A DNA stretch of 64,000 bases, from positions 248,001-312,000 of the forward strand of contig QPMI01000533.1 of the NCBI GenBank assembly GCA_004431415.1, given 5' to 3'. Below are positions 30,946 through 64,000 of the stretch, piece by piece. Source of the stretch: Cyanophora paradoxa CCMP329 (taxonomy: Eukaryota; Plantae; Glaucophyta). Under the pieces are notes generated by a model. It had not been told where the DNA came from. It did no database searches and was given only the letters and a program-made list of their open reading frames with translations. The translations under genes were made by a program, and so were the position numbers. Every line of letters begins with the position of its first letter. Within the stretch, counting starts at the first letter, position 1.

Positions 30946-31832
30946 CTAGCCTACCTTCGCAGAAATTTTGGAACGCGGTAATTTGTGGCCACAGCCTCTA
31001 GACACCAGCACTGCGGGGGCTGCCCAGGGGGCATATACAACAAAGAGAACGACTGAAATAAGAAAACTAAGGCAAGAGCACTAAAAGCAACAAGACAAAG
31101 AGCCAAAATCGACAGCAGAGGAAGAGAATCCGAGAAGAGACGACGGACGAGAAAATCCGAGACGGAGATCGAGCTACAGAGTTAGAAGGCAAAGAAGAGG
31201 AAATAGAGAGACACGAGAAAGAGCTAGAACCAGCACCGAGATCGACAGTAGACGAAACCGACCAAGGAGGACAGAAGTGAGAAAGATATATCACAGGGAG
31301 CAGACAAGTAAGGGGAACAACAAGGCGATCACGAAGAGGATCCGGAGGCGGAGGAGAAGGAGCTCGAGGTAGTAAAGGGGAACGGCGCGAAAGCGGACCA
31401 GGGGGATCAAGAACATGCAAAAGGGCAGTCAAAGGCGCGTTAATTAAGTCTTGCAATATATATATATATACACGTGCACGGTAGAGCAACTTTCCACACC
31501 ATGCGTACTACTCAAGCTTGTGGTCTAGATCTACTACGGTATGCATATGCGTGACAACTTGTCACAGTGTATTCCCACATGCATATGCGGTTTCATATAT
31601 ATATATATATATATATATGTGGGCTCTTGCCAAGGGTCGAGCTCTCGAGCTTGCCCCTTCGCTGTCAATGCATTGTTAACCCTCGGAGGTTGATGAGTCA
31701 CGCGTTGCGGAGGTTGCATTGTTATATTGCATTCGGGGAGGCAGGGGGACTAACACGTCCAATGTACCCCCCGGGGGCCTCCCGGCCTCTAACTAGGCTC
31801 GGACTCTAACTGAATGCTGTACCCCCCTGCGG

Positions 31833-32573
31833 TTACTGCCCGAGCCTAGCGAACTTGCGTAACTCGGCCTCGCCCTGTACCCAGTGGCTGGTGTCGGTCA
31901 TCCAATCACGTACCTCCCTCTGACGCTTGAGTGACTCACGCTGCTCAGGTGAGGGGGAGGGGGGGCCGTAGAGGAGGGGCCGCGGCGGGGGTACCATGCC
32001 AAAGTTTGCCCACTCGGGGGGTATACCGAATTCGCCTTGAACGATCCTCTGCGGTGTGAAGTATTGGCCGTCGCTCAGCGCCAGGTGGTAGAAGGCGTTT
32101 CGCAGTCGTCTGAGGAAGCGGGGCTGCGCTGTCTGCGGGTCAAGGCTCTCAAAGCGCCACGGTGCAACAAAATCGATGATTCGCTGCTGTACCTGCGCGG
32201 GCAGGGCAAGGATCTGGCTCTTGCGGTTCGCAAAGGCCGTCCATAGGGCTTTCAGGTCCGCCCAATCGCCGTTCAGATCCCTGCGTTCGCGCCTCAGATG
32301 AGATCTCGGCCTGATTGTCATACCCATCAAGCTCGCAGCCCTGATCATGTCCTCGTCCGGCCAATCTCGCTCGTCGTTAAACTCGTCTCTGATCCAACGC
32401 ACTAAATAGAGCACGCGCTCCATGAAGTTCTCCGCCGGCGAGCCGCCCACTGAGGACGTGCGCCTCCCCTCCAGCACTGCGTTCGCATCCTCCAAGTCCA
32501 CGTTCCGCTGCAGGATCTCCCCATCGTTGTAGGTGTTGTTGTACAGCACGTCGGACTCGCGGGTTCGCGCCAT
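31833..32573 (-). CDS. Viral hypothetical protein with F-box-like motif, paralog of 33398-33976
   Basis: 246 aa intronless ORF; LKALWTAFANRKSQILALPAQVQQRIIDF. Confidence 0.75.
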   Translation of the reverse strand: MARTRESDVLYNNTYNDGEILQRNVDLEDANAVLEGRRTSSVGGSPAENFMERVLYLVRWIRDEFNDERDWPDEDMIRAASLMGMTIRPRSHLRRERRDLNGDWADLKALWTAFANRKSQILALPAQVQQRIIDFVAPWRFESLDPQTAQPRFLRRLRNAFYHLALSDGQYFTPQRIVQGEFGIPPEWANFGMVPPPRPLLYGPPSPSPEQRESLKRQREVRDWMTDTSHWVQGEAELRKFARLGQ

Positions 32574-32609
32574 GCTCGCGGCTCGCTGAGAATTTCTACC
32601 TGTACCCCC
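32574..32609 (-). promoter_or_regulatory. Repeated viral upstream element, copy 1
   Basis: GGGGGTACAGGTAGAAATTCTCAGCGAGCCGCGAGC directly before ATG; near-identical at 33342-33379. Confidence 0.7.
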
Positions 32610-33341
32610 TCACTGGCCGAAGTGCGACGGTCCCCAGTCGAGGTCGGGGTGGGGCCATGGGGGCCTTGGGCGGGGTACGATGCTCCCGCTTGCCAGCTCC
32701 ATGTACTCCCCCACGGGGTTGTCTTCGTTTGCGAGGTCCTTGTAGTTGCCCTTTACGAGATCCGCCGCCGCTTTGCGCCAGCGAACGGCCACGTTGTACG
32801 TGTTGTCGATGATGTTCTGCACCGTACCCTCCATGGGTGTTAGGGACGGTGTGTAGGTGAGATAGTCGTCTTCCCTCTTGCGCAGACTCAATTCCCTTTC
32901 GTAGTACTCCACTGCGCTTGGGAGGGCTTTGAGCTCCACCGCGTGCTGGCCCGGGTCCGACGAGCTAATGAGCCCGGAGCGCTGCAGTGCGTTCACAGCC
33001 GCCCGCAGCATGATTTTGCCCACCCCCCGCATCGAATCCCTCTGCTCGGGCGTCCCGTACCCCCCCTGCGGCCCGTAATCGTTGTAATAGCTCTCTATTT
33101 CAACGGTGGCTGGGCTAGTGCCGACGCGAGGCTTGACAAAGCCGTACAGCCATGCCATAGCGTCGTTGTCCGCGGAGCGGCCACTGTCGGGAGAGGATGA
33201 GAACACTTCGATTTTGAATTCCCTGGTCCGCGGGTTGACTCGCGTCATTAGGTTGAGGGGGAAGCGCGCATTCCCGAATTTATCGGGAAAGAGGCGGTGT
33301 AGCTTGAACCACGCTTCCTGATCGCCGTAGGTGTACGACAT
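32610..33341 (-). CDS. Viral GNAT-fold acetyltransferase-like protein
   Basis: 243 aa ORF; MRGVGKIMLRAAV (motif A) and LKALPSAVEYYER (motif B). Confidence 0.6.
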   Translation of the reverse strand: MSYTYGDQEAWFKLHRLFPDKFGNARFPLNLMTRVNPRTREFKIEVFSSSPDSGRSADNDAMAWLYGFVKPRVGTSPATVEIESYYNDYGPQGGYGTPEQRDSMRGVGKIMLRAAVNALQRSGLISSSDPGQHAVELKALPSAVEYYERELSLRKREDDYLTYTPSLTPMEGTVQNIIDNTYNVAVRWRKAAADLVKGNYKDLANEDNPVGEYMELASGSIVPRPRPPWPHPDLDWGPSHFGQ

Positions 33342-33379
33342 TTGCTCGCGGCTCGCTGAGAATATCTACCTGTACCCCC
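33342..33379 (-). promoter_or_regulatory. Repeated viral upstream element, copy 2
   Basis: GGGGGTACAGGTAGATATTCTCAGCGAGCCGCGAGCAA before ATG. Confidence 0.7.
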
Positions 33380-33397
33380 ACTCCCGGTCGGGGTACC

Positions 33398-33976
33398 TCA
33401 TTCGAGCCTCCTACGCTTCGCCTCCTTCTCTTCCGCTTCGCGTATGTACTGCTCCTGCCAGCGGGGGGGTAGCATCTCCAGGGGCATTGTGTAGTTCTCC
33501 TCGAGTGATTCCTGCCAGGGTAGCAGGGGCCGCGGCATCTGACGATTGTAACTGTCGCGGATGTGGAAGTAATCGACTACCCAGTTACGGAACACCTCCA
33601 ACGGTTGGTAGGGCTCGTTTGCCGTCGTCAGAGGCCGCTCGGCCGTCCACCACTTCTCGAAGATGAGCCGCTGAATCTCTTCTGGGAGGTGCGGTATCAT
33701 GCTCTTCCGGCTCACGAATGCCATCCAGAGCTGTTTCAGTACGTTTATGATACCGTACTCCCCAAAGCCCCAGCGGTAGGGTCCGGCGGGCCGCATGTCC
33801 ATGCTATCCCCGAACGCGTTCATGGCCAAATAGAGATTCGGCTTCAGCTTGTTGTACGGAGGTACGTATCCATTGCGCTTGGCCCCCGTGTTCGCTCTTA
33901 TCCAGGGGATCAAATCTCTAACGTTCTCCACCATTCCCTTCACCTCGTCCCTCGTTGTTAGCTCGGGGTATGACAT
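33398..33976 (-). CDS. Viral hypothetical protein with F-box-like motif, paralog of 31833-32573
   Basis: True start MSYPEL at 33976 (avoids overlap with YqaJ); LKQLWMAFVSRKSMIPHLPEEIQRLIFE. Confidence 0.75.
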   Translation of the reverse strand: MSYPELTTRDEVKGMVENVRDLIPWIRANTGAKRNGYVPPYNKLKPNLYLAMNAFGDSMDMRPAGPYRWGFGEYGIINVLKQLWMAFVSRKSMIPHLPEEIQRLIFEKWWTAERPLTTANEPYQPLEVFRNWVVDYFHIRDSYNRQMPRPLLPWQESLEENYTMPLEMLPPRWQEQYIREAEEKEAKRRRLE

Positions 33977-34019: not shown

Positions 34020-34655
34020 ATGGACCTACAACAGGGGAGCGCGGCGTGGCACGCTGCGCGCCGCGAAAAGCTAACCGCCTCGAACTTTGCCGCCGCGTGC
34101 GGCATCAACCCGTGGAAATCCAGGGCCCGCCTCTGGGCGGAGCTGAGCGGGATCGCGGAGGAAAACAACTTTGACAACCCTGCCCTAACCTACGGGCACG
34201 ACTACGAGCCCCTCGCGGTCTCTATCTACAAGGCACTGAACGATAACGTGGACATTCAACACACTGGACTGCACGAACACAAAGAAATGCCGTTCCTCGC
34301 CGGGAGCCCCGACGGACTGATAGGAAATGATAGGATTTTAGAGGTGAAATGCCCTTACAAGGGCGAACTTTACGATAGCGTTCCTACCTATTACATGCCA
34401 CAACTTCAGGGCCTGTTGGACATAACGGGCCGCGACTGGGCCGAACTTTTCTGTTTCACGCCTCTGCGCGTGCAGACGTGGTACGTCAGACGGGACGAGA
34501 GGTACATCAAGCTCATGAGGAGGTGCTTACAGCTGTTTTGGATGCACGTCAAGGAGGGTACGCCGCCCGAGCCCTACAGCGATCGAATGAAGTCAGAGAA
34601 CCTCAGCGAGGAGCAGGCGGCGCTGCGCGAGTTTAAGTCGTACGCCCTCCTCTAG
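34020..34655 (+). CDS. YqaJ/lambda-exonuclease family PD-(D/E)xK nuclease
   Basis: QGSAAWHAARREKLTAS, GHDYEP, LAGSPDGLI, LEVKCP, YMPQLQ motifs. Confidence 0.93.
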   Translation: MDLQQGSAAWHAARREKLTASNFAAACGINPWKSRARLWAELSGIAEENNFDNPALTYGHDYEPLAVSIYKALNDNVDIQHTGLHEHKEMPFLAGSPDGLIGNDRILEVKCPYKGELYDSVPTYYMPQLQGLLDITGRDWAELFCFTPLRVQTWYVRRDERYIKLMRRCLQLFWMHVKEGTPPEPYSDRMKSENLSEEQAALREFKSYALL

Positions 34656-34811: not shown

Positions 34812-35057
34812 CACCGTAGCTTGGTGTAGCTCAGGCCCAGGCCGGGAAGGCGCGTCTGTAATGAATCAGACCGCGCAGGATTTGGTTGAGCTGCTCGGTG
34901 CAGGGGGGCGGGAAGGCGAGGCCGCGGAGGGCCATAGAGACGTAGCGGAAGGGGTGGGGGAGGCGGCCCCTGTTATCCCACATGGCGTCCACTATGGCGT
35001 TGTGGACCACTTGCTCTGGGAGGGCGGGACGGGCCTGCGCGCACCGTTTCAGGGCCC

Positions 35058-37687
35058 TCAGCAGCCCTCGAAGATGTTGGAGTTGGCGTGCACCAGGGGG
35101 AGGGAGGGCTGGGACGGCGGCGGCGAGCCCGGGGCCGAGCCCTGGGTGGCGAGGGCCTGCGAGGGCGCCGGCTCCAGCTCCATCTCGAAGATACCGCCCT
35201 CGACGTCGACGGTCACGGGCGGCGAGGCCGGGATCGCGCCGGCCTGCTGCGTGGCGGGGACCTGAGCCGAGAAGTTCTCGAGCCGCCACTCGCGGCAGCC
35301 CTGGCACTCACCTGGACGAAGGCGGCGCGGTTGGCGACGGGCGGAGCCGAGAGGGCCTGCGCGGGGGCGTCACTCACAGAAGCCGAAGGCGCCGGCCTTG
35401 TGGGGCGGGGCGTCGGGGTCGCGGGGCGTGCTATAGGCCTCCGAGCCCTCCGATTCAGAGTCACTCACCGAGCTGAGAGGGTGCGGTGAGAAGAGGCCGA
35501 GGCGGGCCTTCTTGGCGGGCAGGAGGTGGGAGCCGTTGCGGGCGCAATCGCCGCCATGGGCGCACCTCTCTCCGTGGGTGGGGCAGAGGGCCGGGGGCGA
35601 GGGCGCCGGCACCGGCGCCTCGACGTCCCAGTCCGCCAGCTCGGGGAGGCCGTGCTCGTCGAACGCCAGCGCGGGCCGCCCGCTGAAGCCGAACGGGGCG
35701 GGGGGCGAGAGCGCGTTGTCCCCGACGCCCCAGACGGCGCTGAACGCCGCATCGTCCCAGCGCGCCTCCGCCTCCGCCTGGCCCTCGTCCCTTGCCTCGT
35801 CCACCTCCTTGGCGGAGAGCGACCCGATCTTGATGATGGAGGCCTGGATCAGCACAAACTCGCGCTGGAAGAATTGGACGAGCGGGATGGTAACTGCGGG
35901 AGAGGGGTGAGCGGGGAGAGCGCGGGGCGCAGGCCAAGGGCGGGGGCGCAGGCCAAGGGCGGGGCGGACGCACATTCGATGCCGTAGGCCACCTCCTTGA
36001 TGTAGCGGCCCCGGCGGCCGATCTCCTTGGCCAGCATGCTGCACTCCTTGCGCGCCGGGTGGCCGTGGCCCCACTCCATGGCGATCATCGCCTTCGCCAG
36101 ACGGACGCCCTCGATGTGCCACTCGTCCATCTCCGCCTCCAGCTTGGCGCAGATGCGCATCCAGAAGAAGACGCGCTTGAGCTTGTCGCGGTCGAATTCG
36201 GCGTCGCCGCTCTTGCTGCCCCAGTCGCACAGGTCCGTCTCCTCCGCCTTCTTCACCTTCTCGTACCAGCACTTGATCTTCTCCGCCTGGCGCTGGAACT
36301 CGTCCGCCCGCGCCGTGAGAACGTCCGACTCCTCCTGCGCTCCGAGGGCCCGGGGTCAGGGAGGAGAGGCGGGCTAAGCGGGGCGGCGGCGGACCGTGTG
36401 CGAGAGCTCGCCGACGATCACGGAGATGGCCGCCGAGAGGATCTCACGGGCGCGGGCCGGCCCGTTTGGGTGGCCCTCGCGCAGAACCTCCTCCAGCTTC
36501 AGCACGGCCGCCCGCGCGAGATCGCGGTGGCGCTGGCGGGTCTCGTCGCTCCGGCCCTGATCCACGAGAAGCTGGAGCTGGGCCGCATGCCGGAGTCGCA
36601 GACGCTGGCGTACTTCCGAAGGGCCGCGCAGGAGAGCACCTTCTGCACGCTGACCAGCCAGTACGCGTAGCCCAGCGGGCTCTCCGCGCTCGGGTTCTCT
36701 CCGACCTGCGGACGCGACCTTAGCGCGCGCAGGGGCAGGGGAAAGGGGAAAGGGCGGGCTCTCGCGCACGTAAATGTCATCGGCGCAGGAGAGGAACATG
36801 TGATCAACGACGTCGAAGAAGCCGCCGGACGGGAGCGTGCCGACGCCGTGGTACGCGCCTTGGATGGTCTCGCCGGCGCAGATGCCGGCCTGGACGGTGA
36901 CGGTGTACTGCGAGGCCGGCGGCCCCTCCTTGACGTAGACGAAGTTGAGGTCGTACTTCTTGGCGTACGTCGGGTTGATGCGCTTGGTGACGATGACGTA
37001 ATCGCACCGAACGCCGAGGCCGGACGGGCTGGCCTTCTCCTTCTCCGTCACCGACGCCAGGCACTGATCCCGCGCGATCAAGAGCTGCGGCGGCCCGCGC
37101 GTGAGCAAGCGCGGGCACGCGAGCGCAGGGAAGGGCCCTCACCCCTAAGGCGCCGCCGCTGCCGGATTTGAGGTCCGCGAGGAACTCCTTCTGCTCCGGA
37201 GTGCCGGAGAAGATCGCGCGCGGATGGAAATCGCGATGGAGCGCGATGCTGTTGAAGCAGCCCGCCGCCGCATTGTCGGACATCAGCAACAGCGCCACAT
37301 CGCCGTGCGTGAAGCCGTACTTCGCCTTCACATACTCCGGCAGCTCGTGAATGCTGTAAGGCACGATCTGCGCGCGGGGCACGCGAGCCGGGGCATGTGA
37401 GCCGGGGCCGAAGCGGTGCGGGCGAAACCGCGAACCTCGTTGAACTTATTAACCGGCGTGAACTGGCCCTTGGTCTTCAAGCGCTTCGGGTGGCCGTCCG
37501 TGTTCTGGATCTTCTTCAGCCCGCCGAACGGCTCGAAGCGCGGCACGCCGGCCGAGTTGAACACGCTATCGCAGGTCATCGCGTTGAGCGCCTCCTCCGC
37601 TGACAGGCTGCCGAGATCGCGGGCTATGCTGTCCTGCTCGCCGGGCTGCTGCTGCTTCGCGCAGGAGCGGAAGGTCGCCGCCTGCAT
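35058..37687 (-). CDS. Multi-exon viral hypothetical protein (possibly two genes), divergent from the helicase gene
   Basis: Coding-biased segments in changing frames (37687-37437, ~37368-37145, ~37086-36770, ~36337-35975, ~35895-35468, ~35261-35058) separated by short GT-AG introns. Confidence 0.55.
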
Positions 37688-37992: not shown

Positions 37993-40900
37993 ATGTCTCG
38001 GCTCGCGCTCCCTCCGGAGATCCCGGCTAAGCTGGCGAAGAACACGCTGTACGACGTTCTCTGCGTCGGCGACAGCTTCGGCGTCGATTGGACGGTGTTC
38101 GAGGCCGGTATCAGCGACCAGGCGAAGGAGGCGCAGGCGCGTGCGCTGGAGGATGGCATGCAGTTCAGCCCGAACAGCAAGGATGTGCTGCGCAAGACCG
38201 AGCTGGCCGAGCGCAAGCGCAAGCTGGCCGCGGCGCGGACCTTGAACCTCGAGGGCGCCCCCGGCCCGTCGGTGCAGTTCTCCATCGACTCCGTCCTGTC
38301 GCGGCTGCGGCTCGCGGAGGTGCTCGCTGCCTCTTTCTCCCTCGCGCGCCCGGCTCGCAGCGGCTGAGGCGCCGCCGCGCTCGCAGGACGCGGACGTGCG
38401 GGCGATGCACGCGGCGCTGAACATGACGGAGGAGAACTTCGACACACCGAGCAAGCCGAAGCCCGGGCGGGATGCCGACGCCCGCCGGCTGTTCGCGGCG
38501 CAGCGCCTGCGGCTGCTCATGGGCGCCGTGCCCCGGCACATCGCCAAGGGCGAGTGGCGCACGATTGGCCTGCTGGCGGGCCCGGAGGAGTTCTACTTCA
38601 ACCGCATGGCGGAGGCGGCCCCGCACCTGCTCTGGCTGCTGGTGCTCAGCTCGGACCCGGCCTACACGCCCGAGGTGCGCCCCCGGCCGCCCGTGCCCCC
38701 TCCCCGCCGACCCCCGCCGGCCCGCAGAGGCTGGCGAAGGGCATCATGGGCGTCGAGGCGCGCTGCATCATGCGGAACAGCCGCGCGTTCATCACGCGCC
38801 ACGAGAGCTCGGCGGTCTGGGGCGAGCGGCCGGACACCGGCGTCCTCACCGACGCCTACGCCATCCGCATCGTGCTGGAGGCGGCCTGCCGGACGTGCCG
38901 GGACCGCCACGGGCGCCAGGGCATCTGCGCCTTCGACCTGGTTCCTGAGTTCGAGGTGCCCGGCGTCACCATCGGCGACCGCGTGCAGGTGCGCCGTTTC
39001 CAGCCGTTTCTATTCGGATGCCATTTAGATGCTATTTAGACTATTTAGATGCCATTTAAACCCCCTCGCAGGTCATCCGCCGGTGCTCGATGCCGGACTC
39101 GCACGGGCGCCCCATGATCCACGGCGCCGTGAAGTACGTGGTGCCGCGGCGCACCCTCGCCCTCACCTTCTTCGTCCCCGTCTTCGACAAGGCGGCCGCC
39201 GCCGCCGCCGCCGCCGCCTCCCGCCCCCGCCCCATGCTCGCGGCCGCGGAGTCCTCGGATTCCGACTCGGATTCCGAGGCGGAGCGCGAGGCCGAGGCCG
39301 CCGCCGCGGCCCGGGCGCTGGACTTCACGGAGGAGGAGCTGGAGCGGGCGCGGAGCCTGCCGCGCGCCGGCCAGGCGATGGCCGCGGCCTTCCAGGCGGC
39401 GATCGGCGAGGCGACGGCCTCCGCCTCGGGCGCCCGGGCCGGCGGCAGCACGATCACGGCGGAGGGCCTCGCGCGCGCCATGCGCGTGGCCCAGGCCCAG
39501 GCCCAGGCGAAGGGCAAGGGCAAGGGCAAGGCCGCCTACATCGACCTGCGGTTCGAGGAGGAGGAGGCGGGTGCCCCGGCGGCGCGGCGCGATCTCGGCG
39601 AGGAGATGGAGGCGGCGGCCCCCCAGCCGACCGGTGCGCCCTCCCCGCCCCTAATTTCTGAGCCTAGGGCGTTCCAGAGGCGCCAAGGAATGACCCTGCC
39701 CTCAGAGGAGGAGCTGGAGGCCGAGCGCGAGATGGAGGAGGAGGCCGCGCTGGCGGCGGCGGCGGACGCGAAGGCCTCGCGCGAGCTGGAGGTGGCAGAG
39801 GAGTACGCGATGGAGCTGGAGCGCGAGCGCGAGCGCGAGGGCGAGCCCGATGCGGAGCTGGCGGCGACGGTGGAGGCGGGGGCGGGGGACACCTTCGAGC
39901 CCGAGCCCCCCGTCGACGAGTTCTACCCCCTCCCGCCCTCCCCCTCCCTCGAGGGCGCCCCGCCGCCGCCCGTGGAGGAGTTCTCGGACGACGAGCCCGG
40001 CGACGCGGGCCCCGCGCCGCCCCTCGCCTCGCCCCGCCGCCCGCCCGCCCCCGTGCCCCCGCCAGCCCCGCCGCCTCCGACGTCTCCTGGCGCCCGAGCG
40101 GCAACCCCTCGGCCTTCAGTCCCTTCCGCCCCTCGCAGCCCTCGCAGCGCCCGCCGCCCTCCGTCCAGGGTACCCCCTCGCCCGCCCCATCCCCTCGCCG
40201 CCGCGGGGCACGCCCGTCGCCACGCCCGCCTCCTCCCTCGGCCACATGCCCCCTCCGCCCCCTCCGGCCCCCCGCGCCGGCCGCCTCTCCCGCCGGGCCC
40301 AGCAGCGGCGCGAGCGCGAGCGGCAGCTGCTGCGCGATCAGCGGGCGGAGGCGGAGGCGGACCACGACGACGGCCAGGCGTCGGAGAGCGACGGCGAGCC
40401 GCCGCGCGCCACCAGGCTGGAGCTGGCGCGTGCGGAGCTGGCGGCGCAGCCGCGCGAGGCGCCCGAGATCGACATGTCCAAGTACGACGACGTGACAACG
40501 TACAGCAAGGACAACAAGTCCAAGAAGGAGGCGGCCATTCAGGATGCGCTCCGCCTCTTCGTCAAGAACAACGTGCGCCCCGCCCCCCTTAGCTGCGCGC
40601 CCCGCCCCCTTAGAGGCCGGAGGCGGCCGTGGCCCAGCTGCTTAAGGCGCTGGGCCCGGGCCGCCTTCGGCCGGTGCGCCCCCCCTCCCCGCGTTCGAAC
40701 CCCGCTAACCCCCTTTTGCCGGCGCAGCGGATCGTGCGCCAGAGACCCTACGGCCCGAACTCCCCGCCCACCTTCTACGTCGAGCTCCCGAACCTCTTCG
40801 TGTACGACAAGGTCAGCGCGAACAGGCACGCAGGGCGCGGGACGATGAAGGAGGTCATCCAGCTGCTGGCGATGACCTTCCACAAGACCTACGAGTCCAA

Positions 40901-43246: not shown

Positions 43247-43435
43247 ATGGCCTTCGAAGCTTATCCTGCCCATTACTCGCTAGGAGCGCTGGCCGCGACC
43301 CTCACCTGGCTCCTCGGCGGCACCCCCACGGCCTCGGCGGTCATAGGCGTGGGCTTCGGCTACGCCGCCAAGTCCCTCTACGCCCCCGGCGGCGCCTCGC
43401 AGGCGGCGGCCGGCATGCGCCCCGCCGGGCGCTAA
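43247..43435 (+). CDS. Small viral membrane protein
   Basis: 62 aa with two hydrophobic segments; TTTTCTCA upstream. Confidence 0.6.
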   Translation: MAFEAYPAHYSLGALAATLTWLLGGTPTASAVIGVGFGYAAKSLYAPGGASQAAAGMRPAGR

Positions 43436-44009: not shown

Positions 44010-44046
44010 ATAGTTTTTCGAAACCCCGGTTGGAAGCTAGCCAAGG

Positions 44047-51453: not shown

Positions 51454-51816
51454 TGTGCCGCCCACTTTCCGACTCCCAGCTAGCCCTGGTCGTCGGCTCG
51501 AAGCCGGCAGCTTGCCTTGCTTTGTACCCTTTGTAGCCTGCTATTCCTGGTGCCACGTTGTTGCCAACTGGCCCGCTTATTTTAGCCCTGGGCCCTCGCT
51601 TGCCCTGCGCGGCGCTCGCTTGCTGTCTTGTCCCTGTTCTCTGTACTTACTGTCTTACGCTGTACCTGTTACTTGCTGTCTTACGCCGGCTCTGCGCCTG
51701 CTGTCTACGTAATGGCACCCGCTTGCCGTCGCCCTACGGTGCTGTACGGGCCTGTCCCTCTCTGCTTGGGGCGCCTCTGGGCCTAGCCAACTGCTTAGCG
51801 CATCCCGCCCAGCGCA
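51454..51816 (+). repeat. 5' LTR of non-autonomous element (363 bp)
   Basis: Begins TGTGCC, ends GCGCA immediately before PBS. Confidence 0.8.
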
Positions 51817-53963: not shown

Positions 53964-54152
53964 TGTGCCGCCCACTTTCCGACTCCCAGCTAGCCCTGGT
54001 CGTCGGCTCGAAGCCGGCAGCTTGCCTTGCTTTGTACCCTTTGTAGCCTGCTATTCCTGGTGCCACGTTGTTGCCAACTGGCCCGCTTATTTTAGCCCTG
54101 GGCCCTCGCTTGCCCTGCGCGGCGCTCGCTTGCTGTCTTGTCCCTGTTCTCT
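53964..54152 (+). repeat. Truncated 3' LTR of non-autonomous element (189 bp)
   Basis: Identical by eye to 51454-51642. Confidence 0.9.
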
Positions 54153-54153
54153 T

Positions 54154-54482
54154 TGCGCGGCTAAGGGAAGCACGCCCAGTGCAGACCTGAGCAGGCAGGT
54201 TGATGGCAAGAGGCTGAGCAGCACCAGTGCGACGGAGCAGCAGAGTCTCGGTAGGATTGAGTACAAAGGGAACAGATATAGCGCTAGACATAGCTACAGC
54301 GAGGCTAGTCATAGTGCTAGGGCTATTCTGAGCGTGCTAAGATGGTCGCTGGACCAGATGGCAACGCGTACAAGGGTACAGGCCCAGAGGACAGGGCTAA
54401 ATAAGGGAGCAGAGGCCAAGGGCCTAGCTAAGAGCTAGAGGACTAGCCGACGAGCCGAGCGAGTCGGGAAGTGGATGGCACA
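54154..54482 (-). repeat. 3' LTR (329 bp)
   Basis: TG...CA on minus strand; identical by eye to 63358-63686. Confidence 0.95.
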
Positions 54483-54989
54483 TTCGTCCTAGCACAGCGC
54501 GCCGTCCTCGGCGCAAACAAGGCCGGGCGCAAAGAAGGAGGCGCAGAGGCCTACAAAGAAAAATTTCGGGCAAAGCCCGGGCTACCGTCCCTGTTCAGAA
54601 AGCCGTCCTCGGCGCTACTGAGAGCGAGCCGGGCTAAGAAGCTAGCCGGGCTAAAGAGTGAGCGAGCCGGGCTAAGAAGCGAGCCGGGCTAAAGCGTGAG
54701 CCGTAGTACAAAAATTTGGGCTGCAAAGCCCGGGCTACCGTCCCCGTTCGGAAAGCCGTCCTCGGCGCTACAGAGAGGGAGCCGGGAAGCAAGAGAACGA
54801 GTGACATAGCCGAAAAGAAAGCCATCAGGTCGCGGAGTACCAGTATGAGGAACTGGACCCAACAGGAAGCTGGGCGAGGGCCCCGCGACCTAACTCCAGC
54901 AAGGCGCGCGAAGCACCGCCAGACAACCGGGGGCAAACCCTCCAAATCCACCCGGAAGGGCAAGAGACTCTGCTAATGAAAAGATCGAG

Positions 54990-57900
54990 CTACGGCCGGC
55001 GCAAGGCCTCCGTAGGGAACAGTCGCAGCCGCGCGACATGCACCTCGAAGGGACCGCCGCCAGCGCGGTGAACGACCCGCGGATCCGACGTATCCGGCTT
55101 GACCATCACGCGCGTGCGTGAGAGCACCTCCGTGATCCAGTACGGGCCGGAGAAGCCAGACGAGTTGGGTACAGGAGCCTTCGTGCGCAACGGCTCAACC
55201 AAGATCTGCACCGGATCTCCAACTTCGAAGTAGCGGCGAGCAGCGCCACCGCGAGCCACGAAGGCCCGTTCAATGCGGAGAGCTTGCTTGAGCGTAGCCT
55301 CGAACGCCCGCTGCCAGTCAGCTCGTTGCGCCTCCGAAATCGCCGAAGCCCAAATGCCGTACATCGAGGGCGACGCCGACCGCAAACGATCAGCATTCGA
55401 CGCAAGAGGAAGGTCTGTGCCTTCAGGGGCGTTCCCCGCCGGCGGCGAAGCCGGTGATGATGCCGATGCAGAAGCTGACTCCGCATCGCGTTGCAGGATG
55501 AACTTCGGAAGCCGGCGGCTGGCAGGAGTGTTCCAGGCCGGTCCTAGGTTCGATCGAAGTTGACTCCGCATGGTGGCGACGAGCGAAGCACGATGCTCGA
55601 TGATGCGATCCTCAGCGATGACGATCCGAGGTGCCCGCGAAGCCACCGCCTCGTTCTCGCGCTCCCGAAGGCATTCAAAGCACTGACAAGCACCGTTGTG
55701 CACGACAGGCGCTGGCAGGGCGACCTCCGCAGGACTTGGCGCTCCCGCGCGCGCAGCCTTGACCTTGGTGCGTTCCCGCAAATCCGCGCACACCGCGCAT
55801 CGACAATCTCCTCCAGCTGACTGCCCATGACGCCAGAGACACGAGGGGGCGCGCGGAGATCCAGCGGTGCGCTCCCACCGACCGCCGTCCTCCTTGTAGG
55901 TCCACAACTGATCCGGCGCCGCGCAGCACACAATCCGCTCTCCGAATAGCTGAACCTGCTGAATTGGAGGCATCGGAGCTGTGCCCGGCGCCGTCGTGAC
56001 TGGCGCCGAGTACTTGAGATCAAGCTCCGTGACCGCGTCGTAACCATGGTGCAGCCGGAACGGCGAGAAGCCTGTCGCCGCTGACACTGATGTGTTGTAC
56101 GCAGTGAGCGCCTCCTGGACGTGGTTCTGCCAGCGCCCGCCGCGCTGAGCCGTCAACGAGCGAATGATCGCCTCCAAGGTGTGATGCGCACGCTCCAGCT
56201 TTCCTTTTGTCTGATGGACATACGCCGGCAGAATGACGAGCCGAACGCCCTTCTTCTTGAGAAAAGAAGCCGTGTCCGCCGAGACAAAAGGTGTGCCTTG
56301 GTCCACCTCGACCTCCAGCATGAGGCCGTGAATGTTGAACAACTTCTGCAGAGACTTCTTGACGGCCTCCGAGTTGACGCGCGCGTACACGTCCGCGTAC
56401 AGCAGCCGCGAGAAGCTGTCCTCCATCGTGAGCAGCTGTGGGGCGTCCTTGCCAGCGAACTCCACCACGTCCAGCTGCCAACGCTGCATCGGCCGACTCG
56501 CAAACCGTGCCTCCGGCGGCACGTGCGTCGTTTGCAGGTGCTTCGTTGTCCTGCACACCTCGCACCCCTTGATGAAGTGCTGAACGTACTTCCGCATGTA
56601 CGGCCAGAAGAACCGCTCCTTGATTCTTGTCGTGGTGCGCTGTGATCCGAAATGTCCGCCTCCGTATCCAGCGTGCGCCTCCTTGATGATCTCCTCGCGC
56701 AGCTCCTTCGGGACGTAGACTTGCGGAATGTTGCGTGGCCGGCCCTTCCTGTCCAGCGTCTTCACCAGCATTCCACCAGCGCCAAGAGCGCAGTACTGCA
56801 GCGCCGTCTCGACCTTCTCGCGGTCCGCGCGCTTGAGTTTGTCGAGCGATGCCGGCTCGCGGATCGCGTCGATGATCCTCCGCAGGTCGGCGTCCGCGTA
56901 CTGAGCATCGCGCATCTTCGAGTCGGCCGCCTGCATCGCCGGTGCGGGTGCCACCGCCGCCACGCGGGGCGCGCGTTGCTGCTGCCGCTGATCGCGCGCC
57001 GCCGCGCAGATCCGGCAGTTGCCAATCACATCGCGGACGATGCGACGGAACCAGGTGCGGTTGACGACGTCGTCACCGAACAAGTCCTTCTTCAAGTGCG
57101 CCGCCACTCGCTTGCATGTGGCCTCGAATCCAAGGCAGCTGACCTTCGATTTCGGATGCAGACGGGCCACTGCGGCCCGAATCTCCTCCACCATCTTCGC
57201 GTGCTCCAGAGCCGGCAGCTTCCGGACACCGCGGTCGTACAGGTACGACATCCGCATTGCTGCCACGGCCGGACGTGCCGTTTTCGCTGACGGGTCCCCC
57301 GCCCGCAGCTGCTCCTTCGAGAGAATGCGCTCGATCGCACGCTTGTCGCCACCAGCCGCGAGCTTGGCGATGTGCGCCTCCTTTGCCAGCTGCTGGAGCG
57401 TCGGCGGCGAGCCCGCCTTCGTGCCAGTCTTCGCGGCCCGCTTCTCCTGCAAGGCAGCGATGATCTTGCAGGCGAGGGCCCGCTCCTCGGCCGCCGTCTG
57501 CTTGAATTCCCGCACGGCGCTGATCTGAATTTGCGCAGTTGAACCCTCCGTCTGCGTGCCAACGTCGCGTTGACCGTAGTAGAGGATCCATAGTCGTGAG
57601 AGTGCATCGGCATCGAGGTTTGTCTTGCCCTTGATGTACTCCACGTCGAACTGAAACTTGCTCAGTTTCATGACCCAGCGAGTGATCCGACCGCCCTTCG
57701 CTCCGTTCAGCTCGTAAGTCGGCTTGAGGAACGTCTTGAGCGGCTCGTGATCCGTTCGCAGAGTGAACGGCCGCAACTCGAGGTACGGGCGGTACACGTC
57801 CGTCACGGCCCAGACAACTGCCAGCGCCTCGAGTTCCGGTACGCTGTAATTTTTCTCGTCGCGGCCCGTCGATCGGCTCGCGCAAGCGACGATGTACTCG

Positions 57901-60900
57901 TTCCCCTGATCGTCCTTCTGCTTCAGGACTGCGCCAAGTCCGTACTTGCAAGCGTCGGTCTGCAAGATGAATTTCTTCTCGAAATCCGGATAGCGGAGAA
58001 CAGGTGCCTCCGTCAACTTCCGTCGAAGCTCTTCGAAAGCTGACTGTTGCTCCTTTCCCCAGGTCCAGTCGATGCCGGACCGCAGAAGGCCAGTCGAAGG
58101 TTCACATATTTTTGCGAAGTTTTTAATAAATCTCCTGTAATATGACGCGAAGCCGTAGAACGCTCGCAGCTGCTTCGGGTTCGTCGGCACCGGCCACTTC
58201 ACGATCTGCTCGATCTTCTTGGGGTCCATCCGAATGCCGTTCTTGTCAACGATGTGGCCCAGAAGTTCGACCTCCGCCTTCGCAAATCGGCACTTTGTTG
58301 ACTTGAGTCTGACGTTGGCCTCGTCCAGTCGCTGCAGGACTCGCCGCAGGTCGGCCGCATGATCCTCGACGCGTCGAGACATGATGCAGATGTCATCGAG
58401 GTAAACCGTGCAATGGATCCATTTGAGGCCTGTTAAGATGCAGTCCATCGCGCGTTCGAATGACTTGGGGCTGTTCGACAGGCCAAACGGGGTCACATTG
58501 TACTCGTAGAGGCCGTTACTGGTGAGAAACGCTGTCTTCTCTTTGCTCGCCTCGTCGAGGGGCAATTGCCAGTATCCGCTGATCATGTCCAGGGTCGAAA
58601 AGATGACCGAGCCTTGGAGCGAGTCCAAGATGTCGTCAACACGAGGAAGAGGGTACGCGTCTGGCTTCGTCTTCGCGTTCAATTCACGATAATCGACGCA
58701 AAATCGCCACGTCCCGTCCTTCTTCTTAGCCAGAACGACAGGAAACGCCCACGGTGACTTGGACGGCCGGACAACGTTGTCCTTGAGCATCTGCTCGACG
58801 TGCTCCGAGATCACCTTGTTTTTGAGAGCATTGTTCCGCCGTAACGGAATCTGAATCGGACGTGCTCCTTGAACGTCGATGTGGTGCGCGTATTTTTGGG
58901 GCAGCAGCTTGCCCGTCTCGACCTTGTACTCGGACGCAAACATGTGTCTGAAATCGTACAGCACCGCGCAGACGCCTCTGACGACGGTGGCGTCCAGACC
59001 CTCATGTCCGACGTCCAGTCTTGCACGAAGAGCTTGCCACGCCGGGTCCGCCTCCCGAGTGCGGCACTCCTCGCATTGTCCGCAGGCGCATGACTCCTTG
59101 CGCTGCGTCGCAGGTCGAGTTGCTGTCGGCGTCTCGCCGACCGACGCCACCGTTGGCCCGTTCGCCGCCGTCGGTGTTGTCGCCTCCTCCTTGGTCTCCG
59201 TCTCCTCCTTCCTGGTGTGGTCGTTCTTCACGCCGACTTCATGAACAGAGCTGATCGTCTGCAGATCGGGACCCTCCGGCGTCCAGTAACCGAGCATGGC
59301 GCCCTTCTTGATCCGACGATTCGCATATTGCGAGTTCAGCACTCGAACCATGCAGACGCCGTCGTGGAACGTTGTCAGGTTCCCGGCCATCATGAGGTTC
59401 GTCTTCTGGTACAGTCGTGGATGCTCTTCCACCATGCCGCGAGTGCCGTCCTTCGGCTGATCGCCCTTTTGATCCAGCTTGACCAGAACGTCGTGTTCGT
59501 GCCGAGCCTTGATCTTCACGTCCTCCGACGCGATCACCGCAACGCCACTCCGTACGCGTGGCTCCGTGTTGACTGTCTCTCCCGACTTGTTTTTCATGAT
59601 GCCCTCGGACAGATCGATGGCCCACGCGTTGTCCATGATGTAGTCGGCGCCAAGAATAATGTGCGTTGGCAAATTCTCCCACACGAAGAATTCTTGCACT
59701 GATTTTGCGAGCGTCCCCAGCGTCACCTCGATGTCGACGGAGCCCAACACGTTGACTGGTGAGCCGTCTGCCGTCGCAAATTCGCCTCTCCTGCTCTTGT
59801 CGATTTTCTCCTGCAGGCCGAGCTTCTCCACCAGGCGCCTCGAGATAATCGAGAACGCGGCGCCGGTGTCGACGAGCGCCTTCAAGGGCCCCTTGCCGTT
59901 GAGTCTCGCCTGAATCTCCGCATGAACTCCGGTTCGTTTGCTCAATCGTTCTGCCGTCCGCCGAAGCGAGGCAATGATTGTTTCTTGCTCCTCGGCCAGA
60001 GTCATGCCGTCGAGGTCGTCCAGACCCTCGACATTGTCGTTGTCGCTGTCGTCGTCGACTGCAACCTCCGGGACGCGTCCCGTACGTCGATCGTTCGATG
60101 TCTCGGCGGTACGCGCGCGTCGCGCTCGTCGCTCGTAGACCATCTGAACGTTTGGCCCCCAGCGGGCCAGCGGGTAGGAGCGGTTGAAGTCGGACTGAGG
60201 CGAGCTCGTGGTGGAACACTTGCTCTCCTCGTCTGTGAGTTCGTCCGATTTCCGCTTGAGGTAATTCCGCCTCCATTCGGCTTGACGCTTGAAGACGATC
60301 GAACCCGTGGGGTTCGTCCACAGGTTGCTGGCCGGTGCAGGCACCGCCAGCTGTGATCTCCACGTCTTCGCGTAGCCAGGAGCACAACTGAAGCTGGTAC
60401 TGTCCGCCCTCGCGGCGTCTCGCGTCGGGTGCGACCCGACGTCTTGCGCCGCGCGGGAGGATGACTGACTCTTGCGTCCAGTTGTCCCCTCTCCTGATTC
60501 CTGCATCGCCGCGGAGCTCTGTCGGTGCGCTTGTAGCTTGCTCCCGTACAGTCCGCTGTGCTGATGCGGCGCCGGCGCTGTTGCAGCTGCCGTCTTGCGC
60601 CCGCCAACCTGCTGGATCCTCGTGGAGGTCCGTTGCTGCAGGTGTGATTCAACAGTGGTCGCTGGCCGAGTCCTCGAGGAGGAGTCTCGCCCCGTCGCTT
60701 CTGCGCCATGGCTTGTGCGTTCGCTCTTGGAGCTCAGCGTGCCTCGTTCCGCGACGGTGCTCCACTGGTCACGTTGTGGCCTTCGCTCGCCTCCAATCGA
60801 CACGTCATCCGCCCCGCCTTCCTTGGGCAGGGCGGCCGCGTGCGCCGATAGAGGTACAGCGGTTTGCTTTGCACGTAGTGATTGAACCTTCCGATCACTC

Positions 60901-61416
60901 ACGGGCCTTCGTTCGTCCTCGCACAGAACACGCGACGCCCCGCCCGTGAGGGGTTGGGCGCCCTTGCGTCCTGTGCGGGATCGAACGGTCTGATGTTCGT
61001 CCTCGCACTGAGACTGTTGCGGTTCGTCCTCGCACACATCTCCTTTCCGCCCCCGTCTGACTTGTTCGTCCTTGCACAGAGTCTTGTGCTGGTGGGCGTT
61101 GTGCGGACGGGCGACTTCGTCGTCGATCTCCATGTCATGCTCGTCGTCGCCGTCAACATCTCCATCTTCGTCCTCATCTCCATCCTTGTCTCCGTCAACG
61201 TCTCCATTTTCCTCGCCGTCGTCGTCCTCCCAATCGTCGTTTTCACGCCAGGCCTCATCGTCCTCCATTTCCACGTCACCGTCTATTGCGAGCACGGCGT
61301 AGCGTCCGCCATACTGTGCAGTAGAGGTGGGCCTCTTGATTTGCCCTCCGCGCGGGTCCGGCTCCTGACTCCGCGCCGGGCGGGCCAGTTTACCGCCGGA
61401 CGCCCGCGGCGCCCCG
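54990..61416 (-). CDS. pol: Pol polyprotein (aspartic protease, RT, RNase H, integrase), +1 frame relative to gag
   Basis: LVDTGA, WRFCVDYR, YLDD, LQTDAC/ELEAL/TDH, HHCC zinc finger, D-D-E (WQLD, VDQG, KLER), GPY motif; uninterrupted ORF 54990-61823. Confidence 0.95.
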
Positions 61417-63114
61417 AAAGGGCTGGCGCTGGCGCTGGCGCTGCGGCTGCTGCTCCTCCTCGTCCTCGTCATCCTCGAGGTCAACAATCTCGTCCTCGTC
61501 CACCGGCTGCGCCTGGTACACGACGCGCTGGCGCCGGACGGGTACATCGTTGGCGCTGGTCGGCCGGCCGCCGCGGCCGCGTGCGAGGCGCGCGCCGCCA
61601 CGCTGGCGCGGGATCCGCTGGCCCATCGCCTGCTCGTCGCCCCGCTCGCCGTTCGTGATGGCGAGGTACCCCTGGCCAGGGTACGCCATCTTGCGGTCGC
61701 ACGGGTGGCCGTGCAGCTTCCAGCAGTTGTCCACCGTGTGACCGTACTTCCGGCAGTGATTGCAGAACGGCCGCTCCGCGTCGACACCGGGGGCGGAGGC
61801 GTAGGGGGGTACGTCATTTCCACGGTACGCTCCGCCGCCCATCGCGTTGAAGTGCTGACGACTGACTTCAGGTGCCGCCGGCAGCATCCGACCGTATGTC
61901 ACCAAGTTGATGTCCGCCTGGGGGGTACTGGTGAGCTTCGTCGCCGCGAATTTCTTGCACTCGTTCATGAAGTGACCCTTGAATCCGCAGAAGAGGCAAT
62001 GCGCGCCCGACGCGTCGACACGCTTGTTCTTGCGGTCGTCTTTGCGATCACGGTCGTCCCGATCGTCGCGATCGTCCCGGCGGCGGTCGCGATCGTCCTT
62101 GCGATACTTGCGGCGGCGATCGTCGCGATCGTCCTCCGAGTCGCTGCGCCGGTCCGTCCGCCGATCACGGTCGCGCTCGCTACGCTTCTCATGGACTGCA
62201 GCGATGGCGGCGGCCCGCGCCTCGACCATCTGATGGAAGATGACGGGATCGACTGTTGCGGGGGTAGACGACACTTGGACGCCGGCGTTGGCCTGGACGG
62301 GTGCGCTGTTGCCGCTGTTGACGTCGTCCGTGCCCCCGTTTATGCCGATCGGCAGGCTGTTTGCTCCCGTACCGAACTGAATGTTGTGGATGCGGCCGTG
62401 GAGGGGTACACCATTCTTGGGCACGTTGAGGGAGTTGACGGCCTGGACACGCCGCGAGAACTTGCTGGTGCTCACGCGTTTGGCGATGTACTCTGCCCAC
62501 TGATCGGGGTCCTCCTTGTGCTCACGAGCTGCCTTTTCCGCCAGATCGAAGAGGTCGATGTTCGAGATGAGGGCCTCTGTCATCTCGTAGACGAGCACGG
62601 CGTCCGGCATCACGTGCTCAAGCTGCAGCAACGCGCGTGTCTCAACGGTACGTTGCTTGTAGTCCTTGATGTCGGCGGGGATGAGCATTGACTTCGTTGC
62701 CAGCTTCATGCCCTCGTTGAAGATGCGCTGCTTCATCAAGGTCTGGGGATTGTAGACGTTGGCGTACTCGCGGATGAGGACCGTTCGCATATCCTCGTAG
62801 GACATGTCAGGACGTAGCTCGCGGCGCAGCGCCTGTAGAGGCGTGCCCTCAGCTTGTAGCATTGCCTTGTACAACGACTGAGCTTTAACAGTCTCTTTAT
62901 CGGCGATGGTAGAGCTGTCGATGTTGTGCGTCCAGTCGTGGAACAGACTCAGATAGCCCAACACATCACTGTCCTTCTGGGGCACAGGCGGCGGGTATTG
63001 ATTGATTACATTCGTATAGGCGGAATTCGCAGCGATCGACTGCATGGCGGCGGCGTGGTCGCGATTGACAGCGAGCGACTTGTTCACGATGCGCCTCATG
63101 AAGGAATGACTCAT
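61390..63114 (-). CDS. gag: Gag with two CCHC zinc knuckles
   Basis: Start MSHSF at 63114 downstream of PBS; CLFCGFKGHFMNEC and CNHCRKYGHTVDNC. Confidence 0.9.
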   Translation of the reverse strand: MSHSFMRRIVNKSLAVNRDHAAAMQSIAANSAYTNVINQYPPPVPQKDSDVLGYLSLFHDWTHNIDSSTIADKETVKAQSLYKAMLQAEGTPLQALRRELRPDMSYEDMRTVLIREYANVYNPQTLMKQRIFNEGMKLATKSMLIPADIKDYKQRTVETRALLQLEHVMPDAVLVYEMTEALISNIDLFDLAEKAAREHKEDPDQWAEYIAKRVSTSKFSRRVQAVNSLNVPKNGVPLHGRIHNIQFGTGANSLPIGINGGTDDVNSGNSAPVQANAGVQVSSTPATVDPVIFHQMVEARAAAIAAVHEKRSERDRDRRTDRRSDSEDDRDDRRRKYRKDDRDRRRDDRDDRDDRDRKDDRKNKRVDASGAHCLFCGFKGHFMNECKKFAATKLTSTPQADINLVTYGRMLPAAPEVSRQHFNAMGGGAYRGNDVPPYASAPGVDAERPFCNHCRKYGHTVDNCWKLHGHPCDRKMAYPGQGYLAITNGERGDEQAMGQRIPRQRGGARLARGRGGRPTSANDVPVRRQRVVYQAQPVDEDEIVDLEDDEDEEEQQPQRQRQRQPFRGAAGVRR

Positions 63115-63339
63115 GATGATGAAGCTTGAGGCACGTCGGGAGAATCGAAGATCGGCGAGCCGAAGACGGACGGGGTCGGGGCAGTGGCCGACGGGGTCGG
63201 GAGCGAGCACAGGATGAACTCGCCGTTGACAGGCGAGGTCGGGAACTGGTCGCCGCCGACTACGATTGCGCGACGCGTAGCGGTAGGCGGAGTGAGCTCC
63301 GAGTGGTAGAGAGGCTTGGTCGGTTCGTTGCTCCGAATG

Positions 63340-63357
63340 AAGCCGGTGCAGCCCCCA
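63340..63357 (-). promoter_or_regulatory. Primer binding site, tRNA-Pro-like
   Basis: TGGGGGCTGCACCGG directly after 5' LTR; resembles tRNA-Pro PBS TGGGGGCTCGTCCGG. Confidence 0.75.
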
Positions 63358-63686
63358 TGCGCGGCTAAGGGAAGCACGCCCAGTGCAGACCTGAGCAGGC
63401 AGGTTGATGGCAAGAGGCTGAGCAGCACCAGTGCGACGGAGCAGCAGAGTCTCGGTAGGATTGAGTACAAAGGGAACAGATATAGCGCTAGACATAGCTA
63501 CAGCGAGGCTAGTCATAGTGCTAGGGCTATTCTGAGCGTGCTAAGATGGTCGCTGGACCAGATGGCAACGCGTACAAGGGTACAGGCCCAGAGGACAGGG
63601 CTAAATAAGGGAGCAGAGGCCAAGGGCCTAGCTAAGAGCTAGAGGACTAGCCGACGAGCCGAGCGAGTCGGGAAGTGGATGGCACA
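63358..63686 (-). repeat. 5' LTR (329 bp)
   Basis: Direct repeat of 54154-54482. Confidence 0.95.
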
Positions 63687-63804
63687 TGCCCGGAAGGAAC
63701 TTGTTCACGATGCCGTCCATGTCGGCCTTCAGGTCGTTCTTCAGCGACTGGCGCTGCTTCTTAGAGCCCTCCCCAATGTCCATCATAGAGTGGCCCTTCG
63801 TCAT
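63687..63804 (-). pseudogene. 5' part of the disrupted viral gene
   Basis: MTKGHSMMDIGEGSKKQRQSLKNDLKADMDGIVNKFLPG, preceded by AT-rich AATAAATTTTCC. Confidence 0.8.
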
Positions 63805-63883
63805 CGCGCCTCGGTTAGGATCCCAGTGGGAAAATTTATTGGTTCACATCGGCCTACCAAGCACACCCTGGCTAACAAGCAAT

Positions 63884-64000
63884 CTAATGGAAGCGGCGGT
63901 AGGCGCCGCCGTTGGTGAAGGTGATCTCGTTGTAGTAGCGGCAGTAGATGTCGGCCACGGGCTTGTCCGCGCCGTAGGTCTTGAGCGTGGTGAGCGTGAG
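63884..64000 (-). CDS. C-terminus of probable NCLDV-type double jelly-roll major capsid protein (truncated by window)
   Basis: LTLTTLKTYGADKPVADIYCRYYNEITFTNGGAYRRFH* fits the terminal IYAxNYNVLRIxxGxxxxxF/Y pattern; not in the ORF track. Confidence 0.6.
   Translation of the reverse strand, partial: LTLTTLKTYGADKPVADIYCRYYNEITFTNGGAYRRFH

Follow-up and report, generated by a model that had tools for sequence, protein, structure and literature searches.

A stretch of 64,000 nucleotides from the glaucophyte alga Cyanophora paradoxa CCMP329 (contig QPMI01000533.1, positions 248,001 to 312,000 of the forward strand; hereafter the window) contains a genuine endogenous viral element. Intron-rich host genes at about 5-31 kb are followed, from about 31.8 kb on, by short, tightly packed genes. 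The viral block spans about 31,400-64,000 and comprises 20.4 kb when an inserted retroelement is subtracted; about 80% of it is coding according to our own exon list, a slight underestimate. The element continues past the window end at 64,000, where the gene of the major capsid protein (MCP) is cut by the window edge. Its size is at least 20.4 kb plus 1.25 kb for the MCP, and the full length likely is 30-45 kb; genomes of Mriyaviricetes, the small viruses with which it is compared below, have 35-45 kb. The initial annotation, made from the letters alone, had seen about 21 kb of compact viral genes. The extent was right, but the genes between 35.4 and 43.2 kb are not compact open reading frames (ORFs); they are split by spliceosomal introns. 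The features on which the argument is built are as follows.

34020..34655, plus strand: YqaJ-like nuclease (PD-(D/E)XK, lambda-exonuclease-type), intronless; Pfam E 1.6e-28, PHROG RecE-like E 1.3e-39
35370..37687, minus strand: gene A, six exons, protein of no recognised family; five introns (37368-37435, 37085-37142, 36706-36769, 36335-36394, 35894-35973)
37993..43187, plus strand: protein of ~1,500 aa with an uncharacterised N-terminal domain, an acidic linker and a helicase domain like those of superfamily 3 (SF3); eight introns (38320-38386, 38675-38727, 38989-39071, 39634-39705 (predicted), 40573-40727, 41040-41097, 41787-41847, 42607-42677)
45815..46520, no strand: long palindrome with perfect 90-nt arms at 46056-46145 and 46349-46438, extending over ~46010-46520 (~500 nt)
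49258..50061, minus strand: DUF5767 protein, 267 aa; Pfam E 2.6e-13, 22-member cluster
50443..51453, minus strand: 3' part of a gene for 374 aa, its 5' part at ~63687-63800 with the retroelement between
51454..63686, minus strand: composite long terminal repeat (LTR) insertion of 12.2 kb, flanked by a target duplication of 4 nt (TGCC)
63884..64000, minus strand: last 38 codons and stop of the MCP gene (63887-64000 is given for the tail), the remainder lying past the window

The ORFs at 31.8-34.7 and 43.2-51.4 kb are single unbroken frames, and those looked up equal database proteins exactly. The YqaJ and DUF5767 proteins named in the initial annotation were confirmed by the Pfam matches listed above. 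Its SF3 helicase was upheld in part: a Walker A motif at 41490, a Walker-B-like strand at 41616 and a motif-C-like 'VIVCN' at 41760 occur in this order, whereas Pfam AAA_22 stayed below cut-off and no PDB profile matched. Therefore, the label 'SF3' rests on motif order. The exons of gene A had no significant family match in profile searches including Pfam.

'Mostly intact', as the copy had been called, needs qualification. The 374-aa gene beside the MCP gene is split by the LTR element and uninterrupted in three siblings (P0025, P0106, P0109). Further, the window has single-base gaps against all compared sequencing runs at 36579 and 43620 and departs from sibling proteins near 41019; these probably are long-read assembly errors. 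The GC content, supposed to match that of the host, is roughly host-like yet modular, with 57.6% at 31.4-34.7 kb, 70.7% at 34.8-45.8 kb and 62.1% at 46.5-51.4 kb compared to 64.6% in the host flank.

The capsid protein

On its own, the 38-residue MCP tail had no match in Pfam or PDB. The same 38 residues terminate a sibling protein of 456 aa, P0026, which passes Pfam Capsid_N with 32.2 bits at a cut-off of 24. Thus, the capsid-like C-terminus that had been suspected at 63887-64000 (minus strand) is that of an MCP. The full protein was reached via the neighbouring gene, which led to a fused sibling gene model holding most of the MCP. Searching with the MCP part of this model, we recovered 15 members of the family from 3,252 candidates. 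Eighteen family MCPs were then combined into a profile, which was run against 1.84 billion representatives. It gave 103 matches, 7 of them from the family, followed by a drop to E 7.5e-12. The best outside matches were Capsid_N proteins throughout (30/30), and the aligned outside sequences were 15-21% identical to the family MCP. Sequence and profile searches of the PDB with the MCP, the helicase and a 260-aa protein of the element returned nothing significant.

A structural model calculated from a 74-sequence alignment had a predicted local distance difference test (pLDDT) of 80; a previous one, based on 18 near-identical sequences, was of low quality (pLDDT 35), and its Foldseek list was not used. 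The 74-sequence model matched the capsid chain of Paramecium bursaria chlorella virus 1 (PBCV-1; 8h2i) with Z 37.8 and a root-mean-square deviation of 2.5 over 355 aligned residues. The MCPs of Emiliania huxleyi virus, faustovirus and iridovirus followed with Z 35-36, and the best capsids of nucleocytoplasmic large DNA viruses (NCLDVs) overall ranged from 34 to 38. Virophage capsids were at Z 21.8 (Sputnik) and 20.8 (mavirus); the structural list contained no capsid of Polinton-like viruses (PLVs). Judged by sequence and predicted fold, the MCP is a Nucleocytoviricota-type double jelly-roll. The initial annotation had staked its reading on a double jelly-roll capsid downstream, and Capsid_N above cut-off together with Z 37.8 provides it. 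A PLV- or virophage-type MCP, as it defines PLVs and Polintoviricetes, was not encountered, since all 30 outside matches were Capsid_N proteins and virophage capsids reached Z of about 21-22.

A quick tree of 83 rows, restricted to sequences of 340-620 aa and free of labelled references, placed the family as one group on a stem of 2.33 changes per site with no close relative. The family branches beside two long branches; its join with these sequences (P0175, P0195) was treated as long-branch attraction. Twelve loci retrieved along with P0147, the best outside MCP, matched it at 24-30% and had no other gene in common.

Could the element be a fragment of a large nucleocytovirus, i.e. of a giant endogenous viral element (GEVE), that was duplicated many times? 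Large-NCLDV MCPs are its best structural and profile matches, and GEVEs were reported in C. paradoxa, with no lineage named in the text (PMC12344493). Yet core genes of large viruses, PolB and RNA polymerase included, are missing from the 20 kb that hold both helicase and MCP, the spacing of 10-14 genes between helicase and MCP recurs in six copies (see below), the MCP is only 15-21% identical to outside matches, and the contigs around the best outside match share with the element just a weak MCP similarity. We consider this origin very improbable.

Spliced introns, copies and mode of life

Gene A and the helicase gene carry at least 13 short GT-AG introns of the form GT...CAG with a median of 67 nt (n = 13 measured). 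The window was present in 20 of 24 of the sequencing runs listed. Three of these, from three studies, are of RNA type (X15, X17, X19); no run is registered as RNA, and their RNA nature is deduced from the spliced joints themselves. X3 is a DNA run. Contigs of X15, X17 and X19 skip 34856-35044, 35894-35973, 36335-36394, 36706-36769 and 37368-37435, all with CT..AC ends. Thus, four gene A introns appeared as CT..AC joints in 3/3 RNA-type runs. A sixth joint, 37085-37149, with five other letters, corresponds to the fifth gene A intron. In the DNA run X3 none of these joints was among the 15 displayed of 135, and its contigs read straight through 35632-36616 and 36774-37663, covering four gene A introns. 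For the helicase, record 2 of X15 has 313 letters where the genome has 525; removal of 155 and 58 letters leaves 312 and matches two helicase introns within one base. A further candidate intron, 40171-40301, was dropped because the same record reads through it. The spliced introns are the most informative feature of the element and were absent from the earlier reading.

The introns are confined to gene A and the helicase; all window genes on the structural side are intronless, the MCP gene being represented by its last 38 codons. In a helicase type with a core identity of 73%, two gene models (P0013, P0012) enter intron-like sequence at two shared positions. This indicates that the introns are older than the split of the two types. 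An origin from introners was not evident, the best pairwise local score among the 13 introns being 40 with no common family. An opposite-strand joint, 35632/38078, was found in the DNA run and in two RNA-type runs at a depth equal to that of the main contigs; therefore, the common form of the family may be rearranged with respect to the window copy.

A single helicase exon as query recovered 24 proteins among 435 candidates. All were EukProt models, on 21 contigs, with 66-100% identity. Cluster look-ups labelled the siblings as Cyanophora paradoxa. Together with the NCLDV-type MCP this bears out the proposal of an endogenous small relative of Nucleocytoviricota in a protist. Counting any marker, at least 56 contigs carry family genes, and MCP genes occur on at least 27; these counts use named records only (two 22-member clusters listed 15 each), and copy number is taken from contigs carrying family genes, not from read depth. 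The genomic copy count suggested earlier thus amounts to dozens. In contigs with at least three kinds of marker the gene order of the window was conserved in 15 of 17, and on six of the seven contigs with both genes the distance from helicase to MCP was 10-14 gene models. Siblings are 97-100% identical, in line with the recent activity that had been suggested. On one EukProt contig (tig00000342, g24258-g24269) two MCP genes lie five models apart with mirrored neighbours, an arrangement which suggests two head-to-head copies or an inverted duplication.

Full-length family MCPs of 456-485 aa are numerous and comprise types that are 93%, 62% and 55% identical to P0026. The DUF5767, 260-aa and 109-aa genes numbered beside those MCPs are 97-99.6% identical to those in the window. 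Divergent capsid types beside near-identical neighbours point to an exchange of capsid genes among copies. The YqaJ gene, judged from its variants, is under purifying selection: 14 of 16 changes are synonymous versus 22% expected (binomial P 4e-8, calculated without a mutation-bias model, the 16 being drawn from the best 40 of 558 rows).

These data bear on the question whether the family is a non-infectious repeat of viral descent, i.e. one old integrant that acquired introns while residing as a host locus, underwent partial domestication and multiplied through duplication or transposition, with no virions involved. Both gene A and the helicase show expression, their introns are host-like (median 67 nt, GT...CAG, with a mean of 86 nt reported for introns of C. 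paradoxa; PMC6704402), GC3 in their exons is 85-100%, and the window copy is broken by the LTR element. Pattern scans, which detect close relatives only, uncovered no free relative among viral contigs of IMG/VR (260-aa protein, helicase, MCP and DUF5767) or among JGI metagenome contigs (MCP); with a YqaJ pattern there was one match at 27%. Moreover, introns in endogenous giant viruses were long interpreted as decay, as recounted in the parts of PMC13692296 and PMC12768974 consulted. Such a repeat is difficult to reconcile with many full-length MCPs of three divergent types beside near-identical neighbours, with purifying selection on YqaJ, with intron positions common to a divergent helicase type and with introns in two genes only, though other genes occupy the same locus. 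We regard it as an unlikely, though serious, alternative.

On balance, we consider it probable that the window holds one copy of a family of temperate, nucleus-dependent, mriyavirus-like viruses with a Nucleocytoviricota-type capsid and a spliced helicase and gene A. The fold of the capsid, the number of copies, their conserved order of genes, the splicing, the purifying selection acting on YqaJ and the break in the window copy are established by the data. In such a virus the host RNA polymerase II and spliceosome would express the intron-bearing genes as a replication or latency module during integration. The intronless structural module, most genes of which are preceded by a WTTCT motif, would represent a late programme. 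Of 21 genes, 14 have this motif in the 50 nt preceding them (mean of 1.5 and maximum of 6 in shuffles; 4 on the opposite strand), and it is missing before both intron-bearing genes. The helicase, with the host polymerase, may replicate the genome from the long palindrome, which likely is an origin, an end junction or an enhancer. The palindrome encloses a loop of 203 nt with 65% A+T; TGACGT motifs, a tandem repeat of 8 nt and a third copy of the arm (45815-45903) accompany it, and it scores z -27 (0/100 shuffles). Because no integrase was seen, integration is proposed to proceed via YqaJ-assisted or host recombination, as is the swapping of capsid, helicase and cassette genes among copies. For the interrupted gene, the window copy would depend on a sibling. 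Since the retrotransposon interrupts this copy, the earlier suggestion of a possibly inducible provirus can apply to the family only.

Going beyond this, the virus may still be active: a temperate virus of mriyavirus size with an intron-bearing latency and replication module, dozens of recombining, integrase-less proviruses and three capsid types that are swapped among them. This is offered tentatively.

Several points weigh against the reading as a temperate virus family. A virion, a circle, an empty site or an element end was not observed. The window, which holds an incomplete element, yielded no A32-like ATPase, VLTF2/3, RuvC, HUH or integrase. Since NCLDV capsids made up the alignment behind the MCP model, the model leans to NCLDVs. 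The WTTCT motif was picked after inspection. Several sites distinguish the transcribed contigs from the window; consequently, expression holds for the family and not provably for the window copy. RNA-type contigs also span the intronless genes at 48.4-51.4 kb, and contigs cannot rank expression, so that a silent late module is conjectural. Their sparse coverage at 31.4-33.4 and 46-48 kb was not taken as silence. Viral genes of C. paradoxa are mostly methylated and silent according to PMC12344493, as far as its text was available. Finally, some contigs perhaps are assembly duplicates; the copies diverge among themselves, however, so that the multiplicity is real.

Affiliation and related systems

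Membership in Mriyaviricetes (Yaraviridae; 'Gamadviridae', Pleurochrysis endemic viruses; Yutin et al., 2024, PMC11253617) is likely as judged from the gene content. The characters in common with the description there are an NCLDV-type MCP (established on P0026, whose last 38 residues are those of the window), a PD-(D/E)XK (YqaJ-like) nuclease, an SF3/SF2 helicase that, by its motifs, forms the C-terminal part of a large multidomain protein, small membrane proteins, an apparently small genome and no PolB or RNA polymerase in the 20.4 kb covered. In contrast to Mriyaviricetes as described, the Cyanophora element has at least 13 spliceosomal introns in two genes, dozens of integrated copies and three exchangeable MCP types, and HUH, ATPase, VLTF2/3 and RuvC were not found in the part covered. 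The latter is why we place it as a likely relative and not as a member. VLTF3 and VLTF2 had no Pfam match among window ORFs and exons and could lie past the MCP gene. Profile searches of the incomplete element gave no match to a RuvC-like resolvase. Six H-U-H-U matches turned up in an unspliced scan of six frames over 31.4-51.45 kb, none in a coding frame. As for the pPolB and integrase of PLVs, the sole rve match in the incomplete element belongs to the inserted LTR element.

The same workings might belong to another Nucleocytoviricota-like group of small viruses (Zora, Zephyr, VC40-type 'PLVs') or to a new one. An MCP without close relative on a stem of 2.33 and the missing HUH motif in window coding frames agree with this, and several groups with NCLDV-like capsids are described in the accessible part of a preprint (bioRxiv 10.64898/2026.06.19.733378). 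On the other hand, a YqaJ-like nuclease, an SF3-like helicase with a large N-terminal region, DUF5767 and the lack of a visible integrase agree with the mriyavirus gene set in the text of PMC11253617, and glaucophyte regions appear in a Mriyaviricetes MCP tree (bioRxiv 10.1101/2025.04.19.649669), their identity with the Cyanophora family being presumed. A placement outside Mriyaviricetes thus seems improbable to us.

The latter preprint notes Mriyaviricetes-related regions in a Glaucocystophyceae assembly. They are from the same host class, are embedded in host DNA and probably represent the same family. One sentence and a figure are devoted to them, the methods do not consider introns, and the text, unlike the present analysis, does not deal with copy structure, splicing or capsid exchange. 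Hence 'undescribed lineage', as the initial annotation put it, is justified by the divergence (best outside MCP E 7.5e-12, stem 2.33) but is limited by these regions. In the text of PMC11253617 'intron', 'integrat' and 'endogen' have zero occurrences, and 'virus' or 'viral' does not occur in the C. paradoxa genome paper (PMC6704402). In the literature we found no pairing of Cyanophora with mriyaviruses and, some figures and supplements aside, no report of introns in mriyaviruses. Within the same limits, the spliced, intron-bearing module in a multi-copy provirus of mriyavirus size appears to be new; the link to the host is already in the preprint.

Of the systems known, the punuivirus of Chlamydomonas reinhardtii is instructive. 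According to the text available (PMC13692296), introns occur in its latency genes, and a viral promoter in front of its virulence genes. As in this integrated nucleocytovirus, host-like, expressed, intron-bearing genes are set apart in the Cyanophora element from intronless genes with a viral promoter motif, and at the family level intron-bearing viral genes are transcribed and spliced in the host. The punuivirus differs by its 617 kb, 506 genes and demonstrated virions, whereas the Cyanophora element likely has 30-45 kb, is multi-copy and is known from sequence. By analogy, then, the element resembles the two-part latency architecture of the punuivirus at about 1/15 of the size. The intron-rich mirusviruses (Okeanovirales, Styxvirales; PMC12768974, in the part consulted) have short GT-AG introns, too, and no polymerases, which suggests nuclear reproduction. 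They belong to another realm, have an HK97 capsid and carry introns enriched in virion genes, unlike the Cyanophora introns in replication-side genes; nucleocytoviruses generally are without such introns (same source). C. paradoxa also houses PLVs, likewise multi-copy endogenous DNA viruses, with 366 PLV-type MCP matches in its genome (Bellas et al., 2023, PMC10120064). As far as the text goes, that study assumed endogenous viruses without introns; the six C. paradoxa MCPs in its Table S2 are unlike P0026 in a comparison by eye.

Among living viruses, mriyaviruses were proposed to stand closest to the ancestor of giant viruses, and their dependence on the host nucleus was predicted from missing genes, as stated in the text of PMC11253617. 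Spliced introns are positive evidence for nuclear transcription as opposed to a prediction from absent genes. In nucleus-dependent nucleocytoviricots of two orders no intron invasion was seen, and persistent infection was suggested to permit it (10.64898/2026.08.29.747986, text in part). The Cyanophora family fits this idea and makes it testable. C. paradoxa is a model alga that is kept in culture, and its genome, methylome and RNA data are public; latency, integration without integrase and capsid exchange are therefore directly accessible to experiments. Intron-blind viral gene callers would fragment such genes, and similar elements may be concealed elsewhere. Should the family still be active as a temperate virus, it would be the first inducible glaucophyte virus and would offer a small-scale model for the latency of giant viruses, placed at the base of Nucleocytoviricota.

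Further features of the window

The remaining features of the viral block are listed below.

31833..33976, minus strand: three tandem intronless ORFs of lower GC (246, 243 and ~192 aa), with siblings on at least 5 and at least 7 contigs (named records)
34856..35044, minus strand: spliced GT-AG intron of 189 nt downstream of gene A; joint 34855-35045 in 3/3 RNA-type runs and 0 in the DNA run
43247..45821, both strands: seven small intronless ORFs, several with one hydrophobic segment
46517..48317, no strand assigned: four intronless ORFs of small size; between divergent genes, at 47280-47308, part of the TGACGTAAATGACG repeat recurs
48422..49204, plus strand: 260-aa protein, 22-member cluster
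50091..50420, minus strand: conserved 109-aa ORF

The left edge at 31030-31440 is a purine-rich stretch. The three tandem ORFs likely form a variable accessory cassette; the first two have a near-identical 35-nt sequence upstream, and the first and third have a short stretch in common. Just 3' of YqaJ, at 34640-34812, are two near-identical hairpin-forming repeats, each opening with the last codons of YqaJ, and many run contigs have loose ends there. A recombination site or a terminator is possible. The 189-nt intron may belong either to a host gene or to an untranslated region. Three hydrophobic ORFs (43617-44006, 44047-44382, 45106-45447) with 19-residue Kyte-Doolittle means of 1.8-2.6 agree with the small transmembrane proteins predicted initially and likely are virion membrane proteins; a 113-aa ORF of this group is in a 15-member cluster. 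The 260-aa protein had been called like a single-stranded DNA-binding protein (SSB). We could not confirm this, as Pfam and PHROG gave no match and NCBIfam and PDB none of significance.

The 12.2-kb insertion holds an intact Ty3/gypsy-type element with gag (61390-63516) and a protease-reverse transcriptase-RNase H-integrase polyprotein (54990-61817, by Pfam) between identical LTRs (330/330 nt). Its second part is a 2.7-kb LTR-bounded unit on the opposite strand with a repeat that is 191/192 identical. At 51454-54482 this unit abuts the 3' LTR of the gypsy-type element tail to tail. The 3' regions of the two units are inverted homologues (80-88%), and a single 4-nt duplication surrounds the whole 12.2 kb.

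The other end of the window, 1-3410, is a second, unrelated virus-like block, AT-rich with 41% GC. It contains a fibre protein with a Peptidase_S74 chaperone (Pfam E 3.9e-16; many tail-fibre PHROGs), two similar ORFs of ~280 aa and two short ORFs, and it probably is the end of a host PLV. In between, at 5500-30900, are intron-rich genes which we take by eye to be host genes, ABC-transporter-like, acyltransferase-like and arrestin-like, the latter with a PYPQQQ repeat. Several host introns in this region appear, again by eye, to begin with GC rather than GT.

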